Shown here piece after piece: positions 1,233 to 54,626 of a stretch of DNA of 54,626 nucleotides (position 1 is its first letter; the number at the start of each line of letters is the position of its first letter). Where the stretch lies: the IMG/VR virus record IMGVR_UViG_3300027868_000010, positions 1 to 54,626 of that record. The stretch is one strand, 5' to 3'. The translations under genes and the position numbers were made by a program. The stretch is from a virus. Lineage: Duplodnaviria; Caudoviricetes. The notes below the pieces were generated by a model. It worked only from the letters and a program-made list of their open reading frames with translations, searched no databases and was not told the DNA's origin.

Positions 1233-2633
1233 ATGGCAAAGCGCCGCGTCCGAGTCAAAGCTGGTTCCCCCCGATCTCCTGGTCGCCCCCTCGCAATTGA
1301 AGGGGAAGCGATGGTCGTAGACGGTGAAGTCGTCCGCAGCTTCATGCCCGCCGGAAAAGGCGGAATGGAGTTCATGGGCGTCGACACCCTGATCAATCGC
1401 AAGGGCTGGTCGATCTACCGAGATATGAAGCACGACGATCAGGTCAAGGCGACATTGGCCTTCAAGAAGATTTTGATCCATGGCAGGTCATGGGAGATGA
1501 AGCCCGCAGTAGCAGAGAACGAAGAGGCTGAAAAAATAGCCAAGTTCGTCAAGCACAACCTCGAGCGGATGAATTTCAAGGAAGTAGCTCGCCAGGGGCT
1601 GTCCGCGCTGGAATTCGGCTTCTCTGCCGGCGAGATCATCTGGGAGGTCGGAGAGTGGGAAGGAGACAAGGCCCTGCTCATCAAGGCGATCAAACACCGT
1701 GATCCGGAGACAATCAAGATCATTGCGGATAAACACGGGAATATCAGCGAATTCAGGCAGGACAGCAAGACCGGGGACAAGATCAGCTTGCCGCCGAACA
1801 AGATTTGGCATTTTGCCCATCAGAGTGAATTCCAGAACCACTACGGCGTATCGGACCTTCGGGCGGCATATCGCAATTGGTGGGCCAAAAAGTTCCTGAT
1901 CAATTTCTGGAACGTTTTCTTGGAGCGGCTTGGCTCTCCCATGACAATGATGAAATATCCGTTGGGCGCGTCCGACGAACTGAAACGACTTCTGAAAGGT
2001 ATCCTGACTGGGTTGTCCGCGAAATCGGAAATCCTAGTGCCCGAGGGCGTGGAAGTCGAATTAATCGAGGCAACTCGGTCAGGAACCGCGACCTATCAGG
2101 AAGCACTCCAATATCACGATAACGCCATATCGCGTGCCCTGCTCGTCGTCGCCCTGCTTGGGGCGGGCGGATCAGACGTGACACGTGGTGCGGACAGCCA
2201 ATCACGTCTCCAATTGCGCGTGCTCTTCAAAATGGCGGACGAACTTGGCAAACAGCTGATGACGACGTTTTCCGAACAGGTGATCAAAAATCTGGTCGAC
2301 ATGAACTTTGAGCACGACAACCTGTATCCCACGTTTATCTGGCAGGACTATGGCGAATTCGAGGGGATAGAAGTCGCCGACACGATCCGGCTGCTGCACG
2401 CGGCGGGAATGGTTGACATGGACCAGGAGGACGTAAATTACGCAAGAAGCATTCTCGGACTACCACTACGAAAGGAAGGTGATCCAGAAGACGAAGTTGT
2501 TCGCCCGCAACCCTTGCCGCCGCCCGCCGATCCGAATAAGCCGCCCCCGAGCGCATCGCAAGGCAACCAAAGCGCCGACAAGGGTGCGGGTGGCAATCGT
2601 GCTACCACCCCAGCAAAAGGGGCAAAGAAATGA
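1233..2633 (+). CDS. Portal protein, Mu gp29/DUF935-like
   Basis: Follows TerL; ALEFGFSAGEIIW, YGVSDLRAAYRNWWAK, FLERLGSP motifs; Pro-rich tail. Confidence 0.88.
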   Translation: MAKRRVRVKAGSPRSPGRPLAIEGEAMVVDGEVVRSFMPAGKGGMEFMGVDTLINRKGWSIYRDMKHDDQVKATLAFKKILIHGRSWEMKPAVAENEEAEKIAKFVKHNLERMNFKEVARQGLSALEFGFSAGEIIWEVGEWEGDKALLIKAIKHRDPETIKIIADKHGNISEFRQDSKTGDKISLPPNKIWHFAHQSEFQNHYGVSDLRAAYRNWWAKKFLINFWNVFLERLGSPMTMMKYPLGASDELKRLLKGILTGLSAKSEILVPEGVEVELIEATRSGTATYQEALQYHDNAISRALLVVALLGAGGSDVTRGADSQSRLQLRVLFKMADELGKQLMTTFSEQVIKNLVDMNFEHDNLYPTFIWQDYGEFEGIEVADTIRLLHAAGMVDMDQEDVNYARSILGLPLRKEGDPEDEVVRPQPLPPPADPNKPPPSASQGNQSADKGAGGNRATTPAKGAKK

Positions 2634-34205: not shown

Positions 34206-35045
34206 ATGGCTACCAATAAATCAGAAGTCGCAGTTCTCGACACCAATCTGCCGGCGTATATGCAGGACTACAAGGGCCCGACCGGCACCGAGGATATCGA
34301 TATCGAGGATATCACAATCCCGCGCATCAAGTTGGCCCAGGGTCTGTCTCCCGAAGTCACGGCGGGCACCGTGAAGCTTGGATCGTTATTCCTCAACGTG
34401 ACCGGAGAAGTCCTTGCAGAACCCGGCGAAGACCTCGCCATGATCTGCGTTGCACGCTCGAAGGAATTCATTCTCTGGCAGGACCGTCAGTTCGACGGCG
34501 GCGGCATCCTGGCGCGAGCGCATAAGGTCACCGTCAATGGCGAGACCCGATACGAATGGGACAAGCAGGGGCAGACGTTCGAGAACAAGATCAAGGGTAT
34601 CCTGCCCGTGACCTGGAAGACGCTCCGCTACGTGGACGAGAACAAGATGGATAAGTTCGGGTCCGCGAACATCAACGATCCCGATAGCCATCCGGCAGCG
34701 ACGGCTCACCACAATTTTGTGGTCGTCTTACCGAACCACGACAATCTCGTCGCGGCGATCAGCCTGTCCAACTCCCAGGTCAAGCGGGCCAAGGATTGGA
34801 ACTTCATGCTCAATAGCGGCGGACAACCGATCTTCATCAAAGAGTTCCTATGCAAGTCTGTCGAGGAAGTCAACAAGGCCGGTGATGAATTCCGGAACCT
34901 GGACTTCAAGCCGAATGGGTTCATAGAGAAGGATGTTAAACTTTTCACCGAGAAGATGTTCCTGCAATTCATCGGGACCGGCTTCTCCGTCGATCAGTCC
35001 GACGTCGGTGCCGACGCAGCCTCTGGCGACAGCGGCAAGTTCTAA
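34206..35045 (+). CDS. Putative ssDNA-binding/annealing protein
   Basis: EDITIPRIKLAQGLSPEV, SNSQVKRAKDWN, acidic tail ending in F. Confidence 0.6.
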   Translation: MATNKSEVAVLDTNLPAYMQDYKGPTGTEDIDIEDITIPRIKLAQGLSPEVTAGTVKLGSLFLNVTGEVLAEPGEDLAMICVARSKEFILWQDRQFDGGGILARAHKVTVNGETRYEWDKQGQTFENKIKGILPVTWKTLRYVDENKMDKFGSANINDPDSHPAATAHHNFVVVLPNHDNLVAAISLSNSQVKRAKDWNFMLNSGGQPIFIKEFLCKSVEEVNKAGDEFRNLDFKPNGFIEKDVKLFTEKMFLQFIGTGFSVDQSDVGADAASGDSGKF

Positions 35046-36556
35046 TGCGTCAGTTCCATGAGTTGTTCGTCGGACGGACGGACGCCTATGGAACCTATGC
35101 TCTCCCCAAGGGACAGACTGCCAAGCGTGGCACGAAGTTCCTTGGGAAGGCGCAGACGATACGGAATGGAAATCTCACGGTCGAGAACTACCGTGAACAT
35201 GTGAGGGGTGAAGTCGGTCTCGGCATCGTCCCGATCATTCCCAAAGTGAACACCGTCTCGTGGTTCGTGATAGACGTCGACAAGTACGGGGAAGATGATC
35301 TCCACGGCTCTCTTGCCAAGATGATCAACGCCCTCAACCTGCCACTCGTGGTTTGCAAGAGCAAGTCGGGCGGCGCGCACCTATATTGCTTCCTGACTGA
35401 ACCCGCCCCGGCGGCTGATGTCCTGGGAGTTGCGAGGAAGTTTGCCAAGAAATTAAAACTCGATCCCAAAGTTGAAATCTTCCCCAAGCAGGATAGCATC
35501 AGTTCGAATGATGCTGGCTCGTGGATCAATCTCCCGTACTTCGGAGAGACACGCCCCTGCATGGGTGCGGACGGTCACACCGAACTGACGCTAAAAGAAT
35601 TCGTTCTGTTCGTTCACGAGCGCGAGGTCGACCCATCTGACCTGGACGTGCGCGTCAGTGAAATGGATCACCGCGTCGATGACCACGGGTCAAAGGCACC
35701 GCCATGTATCGACCGCTTCATTGAAGACGGTATCGAAGAGGGCGGTCGCGACAACGCATTGACGCACGTCTCGGTCTACATGAAGAAAAGATATCCGGAC
35801 GACTGGCAGGACCGGGTCGCTGAGTTTAACGCGTCGCATATAACGCCAGAGCTTAAGTTCAACGAGGTCTCTCGCATCATCAAGGGAGCGGAGCGGCGTG
35901 ACTATCAGTATCTGTGCAAGCAGCAGCCCATGTGTGCGGTGTGCGACAAGGACGCATGCCTTAAGCGTGAGTTCGGTGTCGGCTCCGGTGAGGGTAGCAC
36001 GCTCGACGACTTCACAATCGACAGCCTTCGGAAGATCGAAACGGAAGACCCGATCTGGGTCATCGTGATCGATGGTATCCCGATCAGTCTCAAGACTGAC
36101 ATCATCTTCAACTATCCTGCGTTTCGCATGGAGTTCTTCAAGCGGTGCAACCGCGTACTAAAAGCTATGAAACCAGAAGACTGGAAGGCGATCATCAATG
36201 AGGCGGCGGACAGCTGTGAGGTTGAGCGCGCCCCGGCAATCGTCGGAGAGAGCGGACAGATACGTCACCACTTCATGGAGTGGGTTGGACAGGCACTGCG
36301 CGGTTCCGATCCCAACATGATCCTCGACGGCAATCCGATCTACCGTGAGAAAGAACTATCGTTCCGTGGCACGGACTTCATCAGCTACCTCAAGCGCACC
36401 GGGGGCAGGTATGAAGATCGCATGGTGTGGCAGGTCATGAATGAGGATGGAGCAGAGACAACTTCGGAAGAGATCAAGGGAACCAAGCGTCAGCTATGGA
36501 CGTACCCTGTTGGAGAGCCGTGGTTCGACCTGCCTGATACTGGAGATAAATTCTAA
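35045..36556 (+). CDS. AEP-family primase-polymerase with PriCT domain
   Basis: FVIDVD, SKSGGAHLY, EIFPKQ, WINLPYFG, PPCI, EGGRDNAL, YLCKQQPMCAVCDKDAC. Confidence 0.85.
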   Translation: MRQFHELFVGRTDAYGTYALPKGQTAKRGTKFLGKAQTIRNGNLTVENYREHVRGEVGLGIVPIIPKVNTVSWFVIDVDKYGEDDLHGSLAKMINALNLPLVVCKSKSGGAHLYCFLTEPAPAADVLGVARKFAKKLKLDPKVEIFPKQDSISSNDAGSWINLPYFGETRPCMGADGHTELTLKEFVLFVHEREVDPSDLDVRVSEMDHRVDDHGSKAPPCIDRFIEDGIEEGGRDNALTHVSVYMKKRYPDDWQDRVAEFNASHITPELKFNEVSRIIKGAERRDYQYLCKQQPMCAVCDKDACLKREFGVGSGEGSTLDDFTIDSLRKIETEDPIWVIVIDGIPISLKTDIIFNYPAFRMEFFKRCNRVLKAMKPEDWKAIINEAADSCEVERAPAIVGESGQIRHHFMEWVGQALRGSDPNMILDGNPIYREKELSFRGTDFISYLKRTGGRYEDRMVWQVMNEDGAETTSEEIKGTKRQLWTYPVGEPWFDLPDTGDKF

Positions 36557-40434: not shown

Positions 40435-43344
40435 ATGCTACCCCTGAACGCCATGACAGACTTCTCGTTCATGAAGGGCTTCGGCTCTGCTGAACAATGG
40501 TATGCCCGTTGCCAAGAGCTAGGCGTCGAAGCCTTCGGCCTTGCCGACCTCAATAGCACGTGGGGGCACGTACCGTTTACAAAAGTCTTCAAAGACGTGA
40601 AGCTCTTGCTTGGCGTTCAGGTGGCCGTGGTTCCCAACCTCACGAAAGATAAGCGGCACGGCATTGTCACTCTTATCGCCAGGAACAGGGACGGATTGTC
40701 ACTCTTATATAAGGCAATGACCCTGGCCCACCAGCAAACCTATTACCGGCCTCGTCTCACGTGGGCACAGCTTTCAGACCTCAATGGTTTTGTCGAGGTC
40801 ATCGTGAACGAGTGTTCCCTTGGAGACTTCGTGGATTTCGAGAAGCTTGGCTTTGGCTACGTGGCATGTTCCGCGCGCCCTGGTGCCATGCGTCACGCAA
40901 TCATGAGCGGAGACTTCAAAGTGGTCGCGACGTCCTCGCCGGCTTACCCGTCAATCGAACACAGAGAGGCTTACGAGCTTGTCCGTGCGGTGGCAAATGG
41001 CGTGAAGTTCGGTGAGGACGTCGACGACGGACTTCACATGTTGCGGAGGTCAGAATATGAAACCCTTCTTCGACCCATTACCGTCCAAGACGAGTGGTAT
41101 AGGAACGCAGAACAGATTGCTTCGGAGTGTTCGGCATCTGTTCGACAAGCCACAAACATCAAGCCTCGTGTTGACCATACCCTTCAAGTGCTCGCCGAGA
41201 CAGGCGCGCGCGAACGGGGAGTCGATCTTAGCGGCGATTATGGAGAGCGGCTACGACACGAACTTGGCGTCATCAGTGATAAAAAGTTCGAAGACTACTT
41301 CCTTTTTGTCGCGGATGTTGTGGCGTGGGCTAAAGAGCGTATGTTCGTTGGTCCGTGCCGTGGTAGTTCTGGTGGGAGTCTTTTATGTTACCTACTCGGT
41401 ATCACGGAGCTTGATCCTCTTCGGCATGGAACGCTCTTCGAAAGGTTCCTCGACGTTGGTCGTACCGATTGGCCTGACATCGACATCGATTTCCCTGACA
41501 ACAAACGCGACCTTGTTTTTGAATATCTCCGCGAAAAATATGGCGAGGATCACGTTGCACGTTTAGGGACCATCAGCAAGTTCGGTGGCAAGTCAGCCAT
41601 CAACGATGCGGGCAGGGCATATGGGGTCGAGTACGCTGCAACGCGTGACGTTGCACGTGTAGTGGACACGGTGGATGTTCCCCTGCCTGTAATGTTCGAC
41701 AATATGCCCGAAGACGTGCAGCCGATCCTCGACGCGAACCCCGAATTACGCAAAGCTGCGCTCATAGACGGGCATCCTCGTCACCACGGCGTACATGCGG
41801 CGGGCGTTGTGGTGACCAATGAGCCGGTGACGTCCTTCGGAGTGCTGGATAAGGATGGCACGATCAGCCTGGACATGAAGACCGCCGAGGGGATCAATCT
41901 CTTGAAGCTTGATGCTCTCGGTCTCCGCACCCTGTCCGTGATCGAGAATTGCTGCGAACAGGTCGGGTATAAAACTGAAGAACTTTACGAGCTTGGCTTC
42001 GATGGGAGGGAGCACAATTATCTCGACGACTACGCCGACGACACAAATGTGGTCAACGTCTTCGATCTGTTCAACAAGGACCAGGTCACCGGCATCTTCC
42101 AGTTCGAAGGCACGGCAGTGCGACAACTCATGAGGCAGATTAATGTGGAAACTTTCGACGATTTGGCGGCGCTTATGTCTCTGGCACGACCCGGACCTCT
42201 TGTGGGAGGGGCCGCTGGAAACTGGGTCAAGCGACGGGCTGGCGAAGAGGACTTCTCGTATTCTCACCCGATCATGGAAAAGATTACGGCAGAAACTCTC
42301 GGCACGATTATCTACCAGGAACAGGCGATGCAGATCGTCAGGGAACTCGGTTCATTCGATGACATCGGAGTCAACGGCTTTAGACGCGCGGTCGGCAAGA
42401 AAGACCCAGAAGCCCTCCAGGCGTACCGGCAGGAATTTTTAGATAGCGCCATCGAAAAATATATCGATCACCACGTTGCGACCGGCGACATAGAGCTTGA
42501 TGACTTGGTTAGGTTGACATCAGAAGAAACCGCCAATGCGCTATGGGATGAAATGTGCGAGTTCGGTTCCTACGCGTTCAACAAAAGTCATGCTGTGGCT
42601 TACACCATGCTCTCTTATATATGCGCCTATCTCAAGTCTGTATATCCGATGGAGTATAGTATAGCGCAGCTTCGCAACGCGGCGTCCGAGGATCAGGGGA
42701 AGGCTCTCCTGCGCGAACTGATCGCCGAGGGGTATGAGGTCATTCCGTTCGACCACAAGCGCAGCGAGGATGACTGGTCGATCCAAGACGGCAAGATGGT
42801 GGGCGGCTTCACCGCAGTGAAGGGCGTCGGAGCCAAGACAGCCAAGACGCTCATGGAGAAGCGCGACGCCAACCCTGATGGGTGGCTGGACGACCTCACC
42901 CCTGCCCAGAACGAGAAGATCACGAAACCATTCAACACGCCGTGGGACGATCTCAACCGAAGAGGAAAGATGTACAAGCATCTCTATGACGATCCGGATA
43001 AGCACGGCATACGCGGGCCGATCCTGCGTCTCGATCAGGTTCCAGAAGAGAAGGGGCAATACTGCTTCATCGCAACTCTCACAAAACGTCAGCTTCGCAC
43101 GAAGACCGACGACAAGGGTAAGGCGATGGCGAGTAAGGCAACCTTCCTGAACCTGTATTGGGAAGACGACAGTGGCGATTGCGGCAGTACGATAAGCCGC
43201 TTCAAGTACGAGGAAATGGGGGCACCCATTATGGAGATACCAGATGCAGAAGGTCGCGACTTCCTCGTTCGCGGCACCATCATCAACGAGGGCCAGAACA
43301 ATTGGTTCTTCATCGACAAACTTAAGGAACTGACAGATGACTGA
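40435..43344 (+). CDS. dnaE: DNA polymerase III alpha subunit (family C)
   Basis: PHP N-terminus, GPCRGSSGGSL, PDIDIDF, HAAGVV, KLDALGL, IFQFE, YQEQ, YAFNKSHAVAY. Confidence 0.95.
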   Translation: MLPLNAMTDFSFMKGFGSAEQWYARCQELGVEAFGLADLNSTWGHVPFTKVFKDVKLLLGVQVAVVPNLTKDKRHGIVTLIARNRDGLSLLYKAMTLAHQQTYYRPRLTWAQLSDLNGFVEVIVNECSLGDFVDFEKLGFGYVACSARPGAMRHAIMSGDFKVVATSSPAYPSIEHREAYELVRAVANGVKFGEDVDDGLHMLRRSEYETLLRPITVQDEWYRNAEQIASECSASVRQATNIKPRVDHTLQVLAETGARERGVDLSGDYGERLRHELGVISDKKFEDYFLFVADVVAWAKERMFVGPCRGSSGGSLLCYLLGITELDPLRHGTLFERFLDVGRTDWPDIDIDFPDNKRDLVFEYLREKYGEDHVARLGTISKFGGKSAINDAGRAYGVEYAATRDVARVVDTVDVPLPVMFDNMPEDVQPILDANPELRKAALIDGHPRHHGVHAAGVVVTNEPVTSFGVLDKDGTISLDMKTAEGINLLKLDALGLRTLSVIENCCEQVGYKTEELYELGFDGREHNYLDDYADDTNVVNVFDLFNKDQVTGIFQFEGTAVRQLMRQINVETFDDLAALMSLARPGPLVGGAAGNWVKRRAGEEDFSYSHPIMEKITAETLGTIIYQEQAMQIVRELGSFDDIGVNGFRRAVGKKDPEALQAYRQEFLDSAIEKYIDHHVATGDIELDDLVRLTSEETANALWDEMCEFGSYAFNKSHAVAYTMLSYICAYLKSVYPMEYSIAQLRNAASEDQGKALLRELIAEGYEVIPFDHKRSEDDWSIQDGKMVGGFTAVKGVGAKTAKTLMEKRDANPDGWLDDLTPAQNEKITKPFNTPWDDLNRRGKMYKHLYDDPDKHGIRGPILRLDQVPEEKGQYCFIATLTKRQLRTKTDDKGKAMASKATFLNLYWEDDSGDCGSTISRFKYEEMGAPIMEIPDAEGRDFLVRGTIINEGQNNWFFIDKLKELTDD

Positions 43345-45617: not shown

Positions 45618-45787
45618 AGATCGCCACATATAAATGCCACTGCGGACACAAGTGGGAAGCCGAGGTCGAAGGCGGCACCATGCCCCTCAAACACAATAAG
45701 GTCCATTCGGACAAGTGCCCGGCGTGTGGCAGTATATATTTCGCCTGGACGAACTACCTTTCATCATTCGTGGGGAGACCATCGTGA
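45614..45787 (+). CDS. Small zinc-ribbon protein
   Basis: YKCHCGHKW...KCPACGS. Confidence 0.6.
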   Translation: MKIATYKCHCGHKWEAEVEGGTMPLKHNKVHSDKCPACGSIYFAWTNYLSSFVGRPS

Positions 45788-45992
45788 AGGAATTGCCAAT
45801 AGCGGCGTGCCGGTTATGCGGCGAGGAATTTCGGCAGAAACGCAACGATCAGAGGTTCTGTGAGACGGCGTGCCGGTCATCATTCGTGGGGAGACCATCG
45901 TGAAGGAATTGCCAATAGCGGCGTGCCGGTTATGCGGCGAGGAATTTCGGCAGAAACGCAACGATCAGAGGTTCTGTGAGACGGCGTGCCGG
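45761..45992. repeat. Perfect 116-bp tandem duplication
   Basis: 45761-45876 equals 45877-45992. Confidence 0.95.
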
Positions 45993-47924: not shown

Positions 47925-47954
47925 GAAATTTTTTGAATAGTTGAGAGACGTAAT

Positions 47955-47977
47955 AAGGGGGCTTCGGCCCCCTTTTT
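47955..47977 (+). terminator. Rho-independent terminator
   Basis: AAGGGGGC-TTCG-GCCCCCTTTTT. Confidence 0.9.
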
Positions 47978-48010
47978 ATGTTTAACGAGACGTGAATAGT
48001 TAATGGATTA

Positions 48011-48212
48011 TATTTGTCTAAAATGAAATCTATTCATGATTAACGAAAAGTATTTGTCTAAAATACAATCTATTAATGGTTAATTAAAATTATTTACCTA
48101 AAACTTTAATTGAAAGCAATCTATTAACCCTATCAAACCCTAAACTACCGATAAAATTTACATCAAATCAAATCTATCGGTCAACACTTTTTTATGGTTA
48201 AAATTTCGTTAA
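48011..48212. promoter_or_regulatory. AT-rich control region with 40-bp repeats and CtrA-type boxes
   Basis: TATTTGTCTAAAAT at 48011 and 48051, degenerate copy at 48091; TTAA-N7-TTAA at 48073-48087 and 48198-48212. Confidence 0.65.
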
Positions 48213-48324
48213 TTCGAAAATTTATTTTCGCATATATATAGTGTCAAATTATTTTTCCGATGCTAACCAATTGGTAATAAATTTCCGCTATATTTTGATC
48301 ATTGGAACAAACAAGGAAACGATC

Positions 48325-48459
48325 ATGACGGTTTTTAAGATGATAGTTATTCGGGTTTCGCTTATTGTCGCCGGTTCGGTATTCGCATGGCCTGCGATCA
48401 TTGAAGGTAAAATCATTCTGGAAAGTGTAGCGTCAAGCTTTCAAATCGCGGGGTTTTGA
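48325..48459 (+). CDS. Small hydrophobic protein
   Basis: AAGGA SD; one TM. Confidence 0.4.
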   Translation: MTVFKMIVIRVSLIVAGSVFAWPAIIEGKIILESVASSFQIAGF

Positions 48460-48731
48460 TCATGAAAAATTTTAAACGTTCAGCTCTCCCATTGAAAACT
48501 CAAACTCTAATGAGGAAGAAAGAATTCGGGCACGGTTTCCGCGACGCTGTAAATGGTAACGGATACCGAGTTGAGTATGATTTAACAACCCATTATGATC
48601 GCTTATCATATGAACGAGGCCGGCAATTCTTTGCAGCAACCAAAATGCCGGCAATTAAGACCAAGGGACGTCTAACTCAAGCGGCGTATGACGCCATGAT
48701 CGATTTAATCAGAAATAGGAGTATCATCTAA
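48456..48731 (+). CDS. Hypothetical protein
   Basis: Coupled ORF (GFRDA...YERGRQF). Confidence 0.55.
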   Translation: MIMKNFKRSALPLKTQTLMRKKEFGHGFRDAVNGNGYRVEYDLTTHYDRLSYERGRQFFAATKMPAIKTKGRLTQAAYDAMIDLIRNRSII

Positions 48732-48955
48732 TGAGAAAATTGTTTGAAATTGCAAACGATATCGATAAAAATTGGCCGAAAGTATATTTCGGCGCGCGCC
48801 CTTATTTACAAGCGATGATATCAATGGAAAATATCACCGATGATTATGGCGCAGATAGCGGTAAATCGATTGTAATGTACTTCCTTGCCAACGCACAAGC
48901 ATGGCGTGGCGAGCACGCGCGCCGGATCAAAACAGAATTAAAGGGTATGTTATGA
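48731..48955 (+). CDS. Conserved small phage protein
   Basis: IA.DI..NW..VYFGARPYL.AM...DYG.DSG.SIV.YFL.NA..WRGE.ARRIK.ELK. Confidence 0.7.
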   Translation: MRKLFEIANDIDKNWPKVYFGARPYLQAMISMENITDDYGADSGKSIVMYFLANAQAWRGEHARRIKTELKGML

Positions 48956-49356
48956 GCTATGATGTTTCACTTTTAATCGATACAGGCTCGGATGAATTGC
49001 ATGAAATATGGACGGGGAATTTCACGTCGAATTGTGCCCGGATGTTCGATCTTGCGATAGGCGGACTGGGGATACTAGATGGAATGATGGCCGATGACGC
49101 GTGGCATATTCTCGTCGTCGGCGTTAAGAGAATGGAAGTATGCAGGGAAACGAATATACATTCGGCCAGATACCTTGCATTAAACCCTGGCAATATGAAC
49201 TTTGAACACGACAACCTATATCCCACATTTATCTGGCAAATAATCGAAAATCTGGTCGACGCATGGGGAGATAGCATATCCGCGCAAGACTTTTTACGTT
49301 CCATCCTGGAACAATGTGAGAAACATCCGGACGCGAGAATAAAAGTAATATCCTAA
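48952..49356 (+). CDS. Small phage protein carrying a 22-aa portal-derived insert
   Basis: MSYDV..NFTSN..LNPGN[insert]AWGD..FL..IL..C..HPDA; insert at 49195-49260. Confidence 0.7.
   Translation: MSYDVSLLIDTGSDELHEIWTGNFTSNCARMFDLAIGGLGILDGMMADDAWHILVVGVKRMEVCRETNIHSARYLALNPGNMNFEHDNLYPTFIWQIIENLVDAWGDSISAQDFLRSILEQCEKHPDARIKVIS
49195..49260 (+). repeat. Circularly permuted copy of portal nt 2280-2345
   Basis: 49195-49239 matches 2301-2345 (41/45); 49240-49260 matches 2280-2300 (18/21). Confidence 0.9.
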
Positions 49357-49520
49357 TACCTTGTTAAGGTATTTCGGGTATTTTCAAAGAATGGAAACTG
49401 GATATCTTAGAGAATTGCAAACTTTGCTATTGATTTGGAGCAAGGATTTAACCGGCGAACAAGTGGCGCGCATGGCGTGGCTTGGACGTCAAATGGAAAT
49501 CGAATTAGGAGCAATGAAAA

Positions 49521-49715
49521 ATGTCTGCTAACAACTCATTAATGATACATGACGTGAACGAAATACTTGTCGGCGCGCCGACAGAAACCACAAGTTCAAA
49601 TGGCGACACCTATTATGTCCGCCGGATTAAGATAGTCGACGTCGACGGAAACAAGCTGGAAATTACTGTATTTTCAGATGTCCGGCGTGGCGTCGAATTC
49701 ACAAATAAGGATTGA
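49521..49715 (+). CDS. Hypothetical protein
   Basis: AGGAG upstream. Confidence 0.55.
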   Translation: MSANNSLMIHDVNEILVGAPTETTSSNGDTYYVRRIKIVDVDGNKLEITVFSDVRRGVEFTNKD

Positions 49716-49718
49716 AAC

Positions 49719-50096
49719 ATGTATAAGAATTTGAACGATATCATTGTGACACTCGCGACAACAATCGATTATGAATTCATGGTTCTGGAAACAAGCGAAA
49801 GGGAATGCATCGATTTTGCGGCGCGCTTGCGTCAATCGATCAAACTTTTGACCGAAGCCGAAAAAGCTTTCACGAAGCAAGCAACCGAGAATACCCGGTT
49901 CGACGATGATACCCTGCAGGGTAAATCCGCTCGATTGCGTGGCGTTGATTTTTATGCCCAAGTTACCGAAACAATTCGCTGGTCACTGGATAGCAAAGCC
50001 GTCAAGGTCGAAATGGGCGATGAATGGTACAATAAACGTTGCACGCAGGGCGTTGTCCGGTCGGTCAAATATATTGAGGGCGCACATGCCAAATGA
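49719..50096 (+). CDS. Hypothetical protein
   Basis: TAAGGA SD. Confidence 0.6.
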   Translation: MYKNLNDIIVTLATTIDYEFMVLETSERECIDFAARLRQSIKLLTEAEKAFTKQATENTRFDDDTLQGKSARLRGVDFYAQVTETIRWSLDSKAVKVEMGDEWYNKRCTQGVVRSVKYIEGAHAK

Positions 50097-50164
50097 TGTT
50101 TCGCCATATATAACTCGCGCCCTGGAACGAGCCGAAAAACATCCAACTATTGAGGAATGGAATA

Positions 50165-50878
50165 ATGCGAAAGTTACTAAGTGTATCCGTCGACGCGAAA
50201 ACGATCAAATCAATCGGCAAGGGAGTGTTAACCGGGATTTTATACCTTGCCCCGGGGCGCTTATCGGGTCGAGAAGTTTGCCCCATGGCTTCCGCCGGTT
50301 GCTTAAAATCTTGTCTGTATAGCGCGGGACGTGGCGCATTTTCAAACGTTCAAAAGGCTCGGATATCGAAAACAAATCTCTATTTCGATGATCGAGAATT
50401 GTTTTTTAATATCCTATATCGTGACATTGTGGCATTGGAGCGCAAAGCGAAACGCGATGGATTAATCCCCGCAGTCCGGTTGAATGGTACAAGTGATATT
50501 CCGTTTGAACGCGTGGCATTTATCCGAGATGGCGTCGAATATGATAACATCATGCAAGCTTTCCCAGCCGTCACTTTCTACGACTACACGAAACGCCACA
50601 ATCGGAACGTGACGGGGATAAAGAATTATTCCCTTACGTTTTCGTTATCCGAAATCAATTTGCTTGACGCAATCCGATGGATTGCCGGTGGAAAGGGAAA
50701 CGTCGCAATTGTTTATCGTGACCAGATACCAGCGCTTTACTGGCTTTCCATCCTGAAACCATGGCCCGTTATCGATGGCACAGGGCACGATGCGCGCTTC
50801 CTTGACCCACGTGGCGTTATCGTCGGATTGTGCGCCAAGGGCGCTGCTAAGCGCGATACAAGCGGATTTGTGATATGA
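50165..50878 (+). CDS. GP88-like Cys-motif phage protein
   Basis: LYLAP, VCPMASAGC...CL..AGRG, VRLNGTSD, FYDYTK, D.RFLDP, VGL.AKG. Confidence 0.7.
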   Translation: MRKLLSVSVDAKTIKSIGKGVLTGILYLAPGRLSGREVCPMASAGCLKSCLYSAGRGAFSNVQKARISKTNLYFDDRELFFNILYRDIVALERKAKRDGLIPAVRLNGTSDIPFERVAFIRDGVEYDNIMQAFPAVTFYDYTKRHNRNVTGIKNYSLTFSLSEINLLDAIRWIAGGKGNVAIVYRDQIPALYWLSILKPWPVIDGTGHDARFLDPRGVIVGLCAKGAAKRDTSGFVI

Positions 50879-51153
50879 GAGCAAATATAATCATCAAGGA
50901 AGGTGACGCCGAACTCTGGTTCTATCGTCACAGTGACGGATACCCTGATAGAATGATGCCTATATTGGAGAAATTTATGGAACGTGTAAAGGCTGGGACA
51001 TACCGTTCCACATCTCATTGTGTTGGTCACCTACGGTTTATGATGAGCGGAAGGTTGGAACGATCAGCAGGGAAACATGTCGAATTTGTCTATATGATTG
51101 ATCTGGTCAAGAAAACAGTAATGTGGATTGAGGCTGGTCAATGGGAAACCTAA
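50875..51153 (+). CDS. Conserved small phage protein
   Basis: RANI...FYRHSDGYP...EFVYMID. Confidence 0.65.
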   Translation: MRANIIIKEGDAELWFYRHSDGYPDRMMPILEKFMERVKAGTYRSTSHCVGHLRFMMSGRLERSAGKHVEFVYMIDLVKKTVMWIEAGQWET

Positions 51154-51275
51154 TTTCCGTTATCGTGCTAGCTGGGATTGGATATGGTTTGGTCTATTTC
51201 TTTACTTTAAGTATCGTGTGAAGAAACACGTTGCACGTGGCAGGGAAGGGAATAATAACCCTTCCTTGACGCGCG

Positions 51276-51423
51276 CCCTATAGGGGGATTTTAAAAAGTA
51301 AAATATACCCACACTTTCGTGAGTATAACTTATTTCTAGCTTACATAGTAGCTAAGGGATTATGGGGTTTATATACCGTAGGTTATACAGATAACAATTA
51401 TATCTTAGAATTCCCCTATAGGG
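51276..51423. promoter_or_regulatory. Intergenic cassette bounded by inverted repeats, copy 2
   Basis: CCCTATAGGG palindromes at both ends; 27-bp core identical to 1086-1112. Confidence 0.55.
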
Positions 51424-52012
51424 AATACGTCCCCCCTGTCTCAACCCCATAGTACGCCCCATATATTAACCCCTATTCCATACCCTGCTATTCCTACTCC
51501 TACCCTGGCCGACCTTCACCATTTTAAAACTTATTTATACACACGTTACACGTGCATCGAAACACGGTTGTATTTCTATTGTAACAACAACCGTTAACCT
51601 TTCGTTCACCATATGTTCTCATTTCCCCTTCCTATACACGTAGCACGTGTATTGTATTAACTAATACAACATACGCCTATGGTTGCAACGTAGCACGTGC
51701 TACGTGTTAATTCTTTATTGACCATGTCCATGCATACGCGAGTATACATGGGATTAGATATGTATTAATGAGGCATTTGACACGTGTCACGTAATATAGC
51801 ATTAGTTATTATATATATTTGGATTTGATGATTACTTATGTTGTATTTGATTGACATTGGGCCGGTGTTTATGAGGTATTTAGCTCAAATGCCGTGGGGC
51901 CACCCCTTACCCACTTGGCAATGTAAGTACCTAATTCCAATTTTGCGCGATTTCAAAAAATGGGATTTGTCCGCACTATTGCATACGAAGTGTCACGTGC
52001 TACGATACCCGA

Positions 52013-53994: not shown

Positions 53995-54626
53995 GAAAGC
54001 ATACGAGTATTGGCGGAACAATCCGGTCGAAGCGATCAAGGATTGGTTCAACGTCACCCCCGAGGACTATCAGGCGGATGTCCTCAACGGTCTCTTCGTT
54101 GGCGGAAAAGATCGCGTTGCCGCAAAGTCTGGACATGGAGTGGGGAAGACGACGACGCTCGCTTGGGCGGGATGGATTTTCCTGAACCTCTGGCCTCAAT
54201 CGCGTGTCGTATCAACCGCGCCGACTTTCGCTCAGCTACACGACGTTCTATGGCCGGAATACGCAAAATGGCACGTGCATATGCCAGCAGGGCTTGCAGC
54301 ACAGTGGGACATCTCTGGGGGTCATATTCGGAACAAAGCTCACCCGAAGACATGGTTCGCAGTCGCTCGCACCTCGAACAAAAGTGCCAACCTTCAGGGG
54401 TTCCATAGTACCGACATAATGGTGCAGGGAGACGAAGCATCAGCAATTCCTCCGGACGTGTTTGAAGTCATCGAGGGTATTATGTCAGATGCAGGGGAGC
54501 AAGATCAAGTCGCAAAGCTCCTGCTCACCGGAAATCCGAATTTCACGTCTGGAGAGTTCTACAACGCTTTCCACCGGAATGCGGCCCTGTATGAGCTATT
54601 TACGATCTCAGGCGATCCCAAGATCA
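53978..54626 (+). CDS. terL: Terminase large subunit, N-terminal ATPase (continues at the window start)
   Basis: Own translation: MSTKSEKAYEYWRNNPV..TPEDYQ..AKSGHGVGKT (Walker A)..TAPT..QGFH..VQGDEAS (Walker B). Confidence 0.93.
   Translation, partial: MSTKSEKAYEYWRNNPVEAIKDWFNVTPEDYQADVLNGLFVGGKDRVAAKSGHGVGKTTTLAWAGWIFLNLWPQSRVVSTAPTFAQLHDVLWPEYAKWHVHMPAGLAAQWDISGGHIRNKAHPKTWFAVARTSNKSANLQGFHSTDIMVQGDEASAIPPDVFEVIEGIMSDAGEQDQVAKLLLTGNPNFTSGEFYNAFHRNAALYELFTISGDPKI
54438..54626. repeat. Direct end repeat (right copy)
   Basis: Matches 1-189 with one mismatch. Confidence 0.95.

Follow-up and report, generated by a model that had tools for sequence, protein, structure and literature searches.

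How did 22 codons of a phage's portal gene come to be copied, in frame and with their two parts in swapped order, into a small gene of the same genome, and does the copied peptide do anything there? The window, that is, the whole stretch of 54,626 nucleotides that was analysed, comes from seawater metagenomes and holds almost an entire phage genome (estimated completeness 92 in the virus record). In the portal gene the segment reads VIKNLVD and then MNFEHDNLYPTFIWQ (order B-A, 2280-2345), an order kept in every related portal that we examined; in the recipient gene it reads MNFEHDNLYPTFIWQ and then IIENLVD (order A-B, 49195-49260), with 59 of the 66 nt identical to the portal at 2280-2345. The coordinates, the letters, the block swap, the 59/66 identity and the pair of CAGG tetranucleotides 66 bp apart are all as a preliminary description of this DNA had reported them (Table 1). 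Since self-BLAST of the genome returns block A at E 1e-11, with block B (14 exact nt) adjoining it, the resemblance is not due to chance. A self-comparison of the genome for other copies leaves the portal and recipient segments as the sole repeat pair besides intergenic and tandem repeats and two short inverted matches of 17-18 nt, which are at chance level (E 0.07-0.27).

Table 1. Positions in the window of the donor segment, its permuted copy and the features around them.
Feature	Position	Strand	Basis
Portal gene, 466 aa, the donor, which remains intact	1233..2633	+	Pfam Portal_Mu E 2e-61; phrog_113 portal E 2.9e-76
CAGG, upstream copy of the closure microhomology	2277..2280	+	sequence
Donor block B (VIKNLVD), 21 nt, C-terminal end of the long portal helix	2280..2300	+	AlphaFold2 model: helix 320-358
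Donor block A (MNFEHDNLYPTFIWQ), 45 nt: end of the helix, then a loop and a short strand ahead of the C-terminal helices	2301..2345	+	model: loop 359-366, strand 367-370
CAGG, downstream copy, 66 nt from the first	2343..2346	+	sequence; microhomology length 4
Low-GC accessory island, which contains the recipient gene	48001..52000	.	GC 0.37-0.48 vs 0.50-0.60 elsewhere
Recipient gene, 134 aa (P0001), with an ATGA overlap between its start and the preceding ORF's stop	48952..49356	+	ORF; phmmer family
Left half of the split family motif (LNPGN)	49180..49194	+	homologue alignment
Copy of block A, 41/45 nt identical, 4 synonymous G>A	49195..49239	+	alignment to portal
Copy of block B, 18/21 nt identical (GTG>ATA, AAA>GAA)	49240..49260	+	alignment to portal
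Right half of the split family motif (AWGD)	49261..49272	+	homologue alignment

Bases 1-189 of the window are repeated at 54438-54626, with exact runs of 62 and 126 nt, and the assembly therefore closes into a unit of about 54437 nt. The record lists it as linear despite the identical window ends, and the large terminase gene spans the join of these ends. Replication genes comprise a Pol III alpha-type polymerase, an AEP primase, UvrD- and SNF2-type helicases, an exonuclease, a class II ribonucleotide reductase and ThyX; the regions 35045-36556 and 40435-43344 hold a DnaE polymerase, of the bacterial Pol III alpha type (PF07733, E 7.5e-66), and a primase whose match is to the AEP domain of the TOTE conflict system (PF22548, E 2.7e-14). 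A 42-nt direct repeat with 93% identity and a 27-nt exact core lies at 1075-1116, in the intergenic gap between terminase and portal, and at 51294-51335, in a 685-nt gap ahead of a 518-aa ORF, and may be a common regulatory element. The assembled sequence also shows two tandem repeats: an imperfect one of about 40 nt (53 nt, 83% identity) at 48011-48103, in an AT-rich gap (47925-48240), and an exact 116-bp duplication at 45761-45992, without flanking microhomology, within a small zinc-ribbon gene; as 116 is not a multiple of 3, copy 1 is frameshifted into an early stop, and copy 2 retains the full C-terminus behind a possible GTG start.

The donor is assigned as a portal gene: the match to Portal_Mu (PF06074) scores 208.7 bits against a cut-off of 23.9 and covers residues 60-401, with the copied segment (residues 350-371) inside it. 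We found 256 portal homologues at E<=1e-20, and residue counts below use the 120 of them that were listed. Block A includes highly conserved portal positions, N358 being present in 119, P366 in 120 and Q371 in 118 of these 120. The residue N353, by contrast with these, occurs in one of the 120 listed portals, namely the phage's own, and in the insert; among the same 120 (of 256) the phage's own portal is also the closest to the permuted insert, with 20 of 22 residues matching. In IMG/VR, three related portal genes, 74-82% identical in protein sequence and with the segment in the order B-A, match the insert at 46-49 of 66 nt, and the segment is unchanged in three near-identical strain variants of the portal. 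The preliminary description had suggested a search for a closer donor, such as a related phage's portal; the related-phage portals fit less well, and the own portal, closest of the 120 listed, speaks for the phage's own lineage. Because N353 is shared, among the 120, only with the phage's own portal, and because that portal is the closest match, sequence comparison identifies the portal of this phage's own lineage as the donor, although one of the strain variants may carry a portal allele that is closer in nucleotides. The nearest known portals are 83% identical to it, and the insertion is recent, younger than the split from them.

The recipient is a member of a small, phage-only protein family with no assigned function. 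An exhaustive phmmer search returned 84 proteins at E<=1e-3, the query included, nearly all 102-117 aa long, and the matches to P0001 come in two stretches, residues 1-81 and about 103-132; the insert lies between codons 81 and 82. In an alignment of 29 homologues all 29 lack the 22 residues and read LNPxN-GWG contiguously, and in a wider alignment, which leaves out the long hits P0005 and P0059, none of the 81 small homologues (81/81) has a residue in the insert columns, the motif LNPxN-GWG again being unbroken in all of them. The proposal that a segment had been inserted and had split an LNPxN motif thus holds for both alignments, with no native carrier among their members, and we take the 22 residues to be an insertion into the most conserved loop and motif of the family. 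When aligned family members are searched against PHROG, 28 of 30 match phrog_4019 and 22 of 30 match phrog_8795; P0001 alone reaches E 0.0069 to phrog_8795 and has no PHROG match at E<=0.001. The recipient protein has no match in Pfam, its model has none in the PDB by Foldseek at E<=0.001 (best TM-score 0.43, to YfbM, E 1.8), and in the ESM Atlas it falls among viral hypothetical clusters only. The two long hits, P0005 (2373 aa) and P0059 (608 aa), match residues 17-83 in 25 and 8 separate stretches, respectively, which suggests that the N-terminal half of the family also exists as a tandem-repeat module.

A homologous-protein search with the recipient returned P0001 alone, a scan of viral contigs gave no close relatives of the recipient gene and none of its GP88-like neighbour, and blastn of 48700-49400 against phage GenBank records gave no match; the closest homologue, P0004, used as the query, yielded just one weak locus (L013). 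The family profile had no match in five viral records (with portals 52-77% identical, or otherwise fetched), an empty answer that carries no weight. The one metagenome locus listed as a relative (L003) is judged spurious: 19 residues match, and the frame in which they do so runs antisense to a 357-aa ORF. Degenerate DNA patterns for other permuted junctions or duplicated portals had 0 matches in viral contigs and 0 in genome contigs; a looser pattern had two, judged non-coding from stop codons in frame. Directly upstream of the recipient, the 74-aa ORF at 48731-48955 matches only positions 64-135 of the 137 of phrog_13953 (E 8.8e-29) and could be one half, the C-terminal one, of a gene that was split or truncated. 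No match exists for the 91-aa ORF preceding it.

The window comes from a metagenome assembly, and a chimeric join was therefore among the explanations to be weighed. At least 58% of the sampled words of 48700-49700 occur in each of nine seawater runs, which come from as many studies and include three possible sources of the window; four of the nine, none a possible window source, were compared as assembled contigs. A contig of 3536 nt from run X4 and one of 4706 nt from run X7 bridge both junctions with an identical insert, and neither shows a listed difference from the window over 48957-49750 other than the replacement at 49525-49718 described below. Neither run X9, without a contig over 49116-49280, nor run X8, whose contig begins only 15 nt before the insert, is informative on the junctions. 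The recipient's 90% protein cluster comprises three proteins that differ at V56I, L89I and E99K; 9 contigs from three sources carry it. An assembly artefact, the condition under which the preliminary description would have withdrawn its claim, is thereby ruled out: for a chimera or a chance resemblance we found no point in favour beyond the metagenomic origin of the window, and against it stand the bridging contigs of X4 and X7, the 9 contigs from three sources and the self-BLAST E value of 1e-11, which together leave it a negligible probability. The sequencing runs matching the region include no RNA dataset and are silent on expression.

These contigs also show local variation around the gene. 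In run X4, at 48946-48956, 3 bases are inserted before the recipient ATG and codon 2 reads TCC for AGC, both serine. At 49525-49718, the site of a 64-aa ORF (49521-49715), 192 bases are replaced by 190 others in the contigs of X4, X7 and X9; a second X4 contig agrees with the window there. A cassette has thus been exchanged, in the low-GC island of the recipient and two genes downstream of it.

The junctions of the insert constrain how the copy arose. The insert starts at donor position 2301 and ends at donor position 2300, so that its ends are adjacent in the source and the copy is a circular permutation of it. The longest exact run shared by portal and copy, 25 nt, crosses the B/A boundary in the portal and is divided between the two ends of the insert, from which it follows that the donor was opened at the single bond 2300/2301. 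Only one coincidence really calls for an explanation, namely that the two retained stubs lie on either side of a single donor break; the closure junction, which joins 2345 to 2280, just sets the unit length. Microhomology at the closure amounts to 4 nt (P 0.019 against random junctions in the portal gene); the two outer insertion junctions show 0 nt, which suggests blunt joining rather than template switching. The closure junction itself carries three of the seven differences (CAG/GTG in the portal, CAA/ATA in the copy), and the exact start of block B and the 4 nt of microhomology follow from reading these three as G>A. RNA folds of both loci on both strands gave z from +1.44 to -0.22, with no structure joining the segment ends.

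Serial template switching of the MMBIR/FoSTeS type would have a nascent 3' end copy 2301-2345, slip to 2280 at CAG(G), copy on to 2300 and return. The intact donor, the shortness of the piece and an internal switch at 4 nt of microhomology are what such a process would leave; the outer junctions, with 0 nt of microhomology at both, are not, and nothing in it would make the second copying stop exactly at the start of the first. It also leaves a one-strand pattern of G>A changes, described next, unexplained, and we regard it as quite improbable.

The differences between portal and copy are strongly one-sided. All four changes in block A are synonymous third-position G>A, and six of the seven changes overall are G>A, as had been noted before. 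In a contrast that comes from 66 nt and whose C>T side was added after the data had been seen, donor G has become A in the copy at 6 of 14 sites and donor C has become T at 0 of 16 (p 0.005). Restricted to sites where a transition is synonymous, G>A is found at 5/6 and C>T at 0/11 (p 0.001), and all other synonymous transitions together at 0/16 (p 0.0002). Within the G sites, 5 of 6 synonymous and 1 of 8 non-synonymous ones have changed (p 0.026). The dinucleotide contexts of the changed sites are mixed, with no preferred one, by a hand tally of few sites. Since codons of the recipient gene end in T over C by 20:10, drift to local codon usage should also have given C>T. The sole difference that is not G>A (A>G, K>E) is polymorphic, a strain variant (P0003) keeping the portal's K, and the original copy probably differed from the portal by G>A alone. 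The direction of the synonymous changes is unpolarised, the related portal genes being too diverged; only the first codon is clear, with V in 115 of the 120 portals listed of 256.

Cytosines deaminate (C>U) far more quickly when DNA is single-stranded, and a G>A change on the plus strand is what deamination of the minus strand leaves behind. The presence of G>A without C>T on the coding strand therefore favours a single-stranded, minus-strand intermediate. The phage genome has no cytidine-deaminase domain and no reverse transcriptase: PF00078 is unmatched in the genome at E<=0.1, and control genomes matched it. From the synonymous bias the preliminary description had concluded on either selection for the peptide or a related phage's portal as donor. 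It was partly right; against the related donor stands the own portal, closest of the 120 listed, and the bias is better explained by a strand-specific G>A process together with loss of non-synonymous variants. Two further ideas were dropped: selection to break up the repeat and so avoid recombination, for its too small effect, and loss or gain of restriction sites, for want of a consistent motif.

The same pattern bears on a route through tandem duplication, in which slippage at CAGG would produce a 66-bp in-frame duplication (B-A-B-A) in the portal of this or a sibling phage and the inner A-B fragment would then be captured. It would use the same CAGG microhomology, and the exact 116-bp tandem duplication at 45761-45992 indicates that such events occur in the lineage or its assembly; against that, a second copy of the motif is present in 0 of the 122 portals examined, and the captured piece must be exactly one unit, with ends at adjacent donor positions. 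On this route the copy's differences would be those of a sibling's portal allele. That agrees with the block-A differences being all synonymous, as expected for an allele under portal constraint, but an ordinary allele should vary at C/T sites too, where 0 of 11 do, and N353 ties the donor to this very lineage. We consider the route as a whole unlikely.

The copy is a real and recent templated insertion from within the genome. For its route and fate, the reading to which we lean, with slightly more confidence than doubt, is a looped or circular, probably single-stranded and deaminated, intermediate and a tolerated, neutral passenger as its outcome. A 66-nt stretch of the phage's own portal would have closed on itself at CAGG, joining 2345 to 2280, which is the product expected of a strand looped out between the two copies of CAGG. 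This circle or loop would have been opened, or copying from it begun and ended, at 2300/2301, and a break between codons 81 and 82 of the recipient would have taken up the piece, with no microhomology at the joins. Deamination of cytosines in a minus-strand, single-stranded intermediate would appear as G>A on the coding strand. The result is an otherwise intact small protein whose most conserved loop has gained a 22-residue excursion. We infer the circle or loop, its single-strandedness, the deamination and the neutrality from the junctions and the substitution pattern taken together. Capture through a tiny circle, proposed in the preliminary description, fits and is favoured by the one-bond break and the 4-nt closure; its topology is drawn from one event and other topologies are possible. 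A relaxed double-stranded circle would need more than 66 nt, which makes a loop of single-stranded DNA the more plausible form. The most specific version, in which a 66-nt single-stranded circle arises from a loop between the 4-nt repeats, is deaminated and is then copied or ligated once round into another gene, we put forward only tentatively, as a reading less likely than not.

Whether the peptide matters is a separate question. Frames 2 and 3 of the 66-nt piece carry stops, and in this orientation only the portal frame is open, so that any surviving insertion in a needed gene displays the portal peptide. In the reading we prefer, the portal peptide would have been kept largely as a by-product of this forced frame, and the insert would be a tolerated passenger, fixed in the phage population, and not a selected portal mimic. 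The opposite reading, that the displayed peptide was selected for binding a partner, for jamming the portal assembly of co-infecting relatives or for acting on a defence that senses a short motif, is unlikely, although several observations lend it some weight: non-synonymous G sites were spared (1/8 changed, against 5/6 synonymous; p 0.026), the gene is intact and almost invariant across four runs, and block A spans some of the most conserved portal positions (N358, P366, Q371). The sparing of non-synonymous sites needs either later purifying selection or a portal-selected donor allele, and either would weaken the case for a neutral passenger; an intact, near-invariant gene despite an insert in its most conserved motif could point to a retained or a new function. 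Against selection of the peptide stand the forced frame itself, the restriction of the graft to a single phage lineage, all 81 of 81 homologues being without it, and the predicted structure. In the AlphaFold2 model of the recipient the core reaches pLDDT 95-98 and the insert 53-75, with residues 82-91 as coil and 92-101 as helix; the insert is thus modelled at low confidence, with secondary structure unlike the portal's. In the portal model block B forms the end of a helix and block A a loop and strand, so that the structural context was not kept. A complex prediction for the portal and the recipient protein (score 0.00) gave no verdict and counts neither way.

The preliminary description had also speculated that the protein might decoy defences that sense portals. 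Published accounts of these defences report that Avs1-4 recognise target folds, that newer Avs families use extended binding interfaces and that RAZR assembles around the dodecameric (12-mer) portal ring; systems that sense short capsid motifs (Lit, CapRel) and ones that sense portals (Avs4, Avs11, RAZR) are both described there. The decoy is unsupported, as a 22-residue loop would mimic neither a fold nor the portal ring. Set against the adaptive reading, then, Avs1-4, newer Avs and RAZR sense folds, extended interfaces or the ring; in its favour, defences sensing short capsid-protein motifs exist (Lit, CapRel). The accounts consulted describe no sensor of a short portal motif. Systems that sense structural proteins (Avs4, Avs11, RAZR, Lit, CapRel) are, as far as these accounts go, those on which a portal peptide would have to act.

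Among known kinds of event, eukaryotic microDNA and eccDNA are reinserted with their order permuted relative to the source and with microhomology at the circle junction. The permuted order and the closure microhomology make our locus similar to these; at 66 nt it is far below their usual size, and it lies in a phage genome. APOBEC enzymes acting on retroviral cDNA deaminate minus-strand cytosines and produce G>A hypermutation, which the copy resembles in its coding-strand G>A, the absence of C>T and the high density of changes (6/14 G), and from which it differs in having mixed dinucleotide contexts over its few sites, no phage deaminase or reverse transcriptase and an extent of only 66 nt. 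There is some likeness to diversity-generating retroelements too, in that one phage gene contains a diverged copy of a short coding segment of another; this candidate was rejected, there being no reverse transcriptase (PF00078), the differences falling at donor G (6/7) and not at A, and the copies being permuted and not collinear.

Templated insertions by microhomology-mediated template switching (MMBIR/FoSTeS) are described mainly in yeast and human cells. Like them (PMC8421209), the present locus has a short copy from elsewhere in the genome, placed at a break or fork, an intact donor and 4 nt of microhomology at one switch; unlike them, it has outer junctions without microhomology, an exact one-unit permutation and one-strand G>A. 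The abstracts of the literature on templated insertions concern yeast and human cells and mention no permuted graft in a phage. Short templated insertions are well studied in yeast and cancer genomes and hardly documented in phages, and here one such event is kept at nucleotide resolution, with its donor, one-bond break, closure microhomology, blunt outer junctions and one-strand signature; these constrain the mechanism more than in most natural examples and point to a single-stranded looped or circular intermediate. An accessory protein can, on this evidence, gain a peptide of an essential, conserved virion protein in one step, which is raw material for molecular mimicry even if this graft is probably neutral. 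If true, the circle route would be a previously undescribed way in which phages graft core virion peptides into fast-evolving accessory proteins; portal look-alike peptides might then arise by it repeatedly and give selection, for a decoy or a jammer, something to act on.
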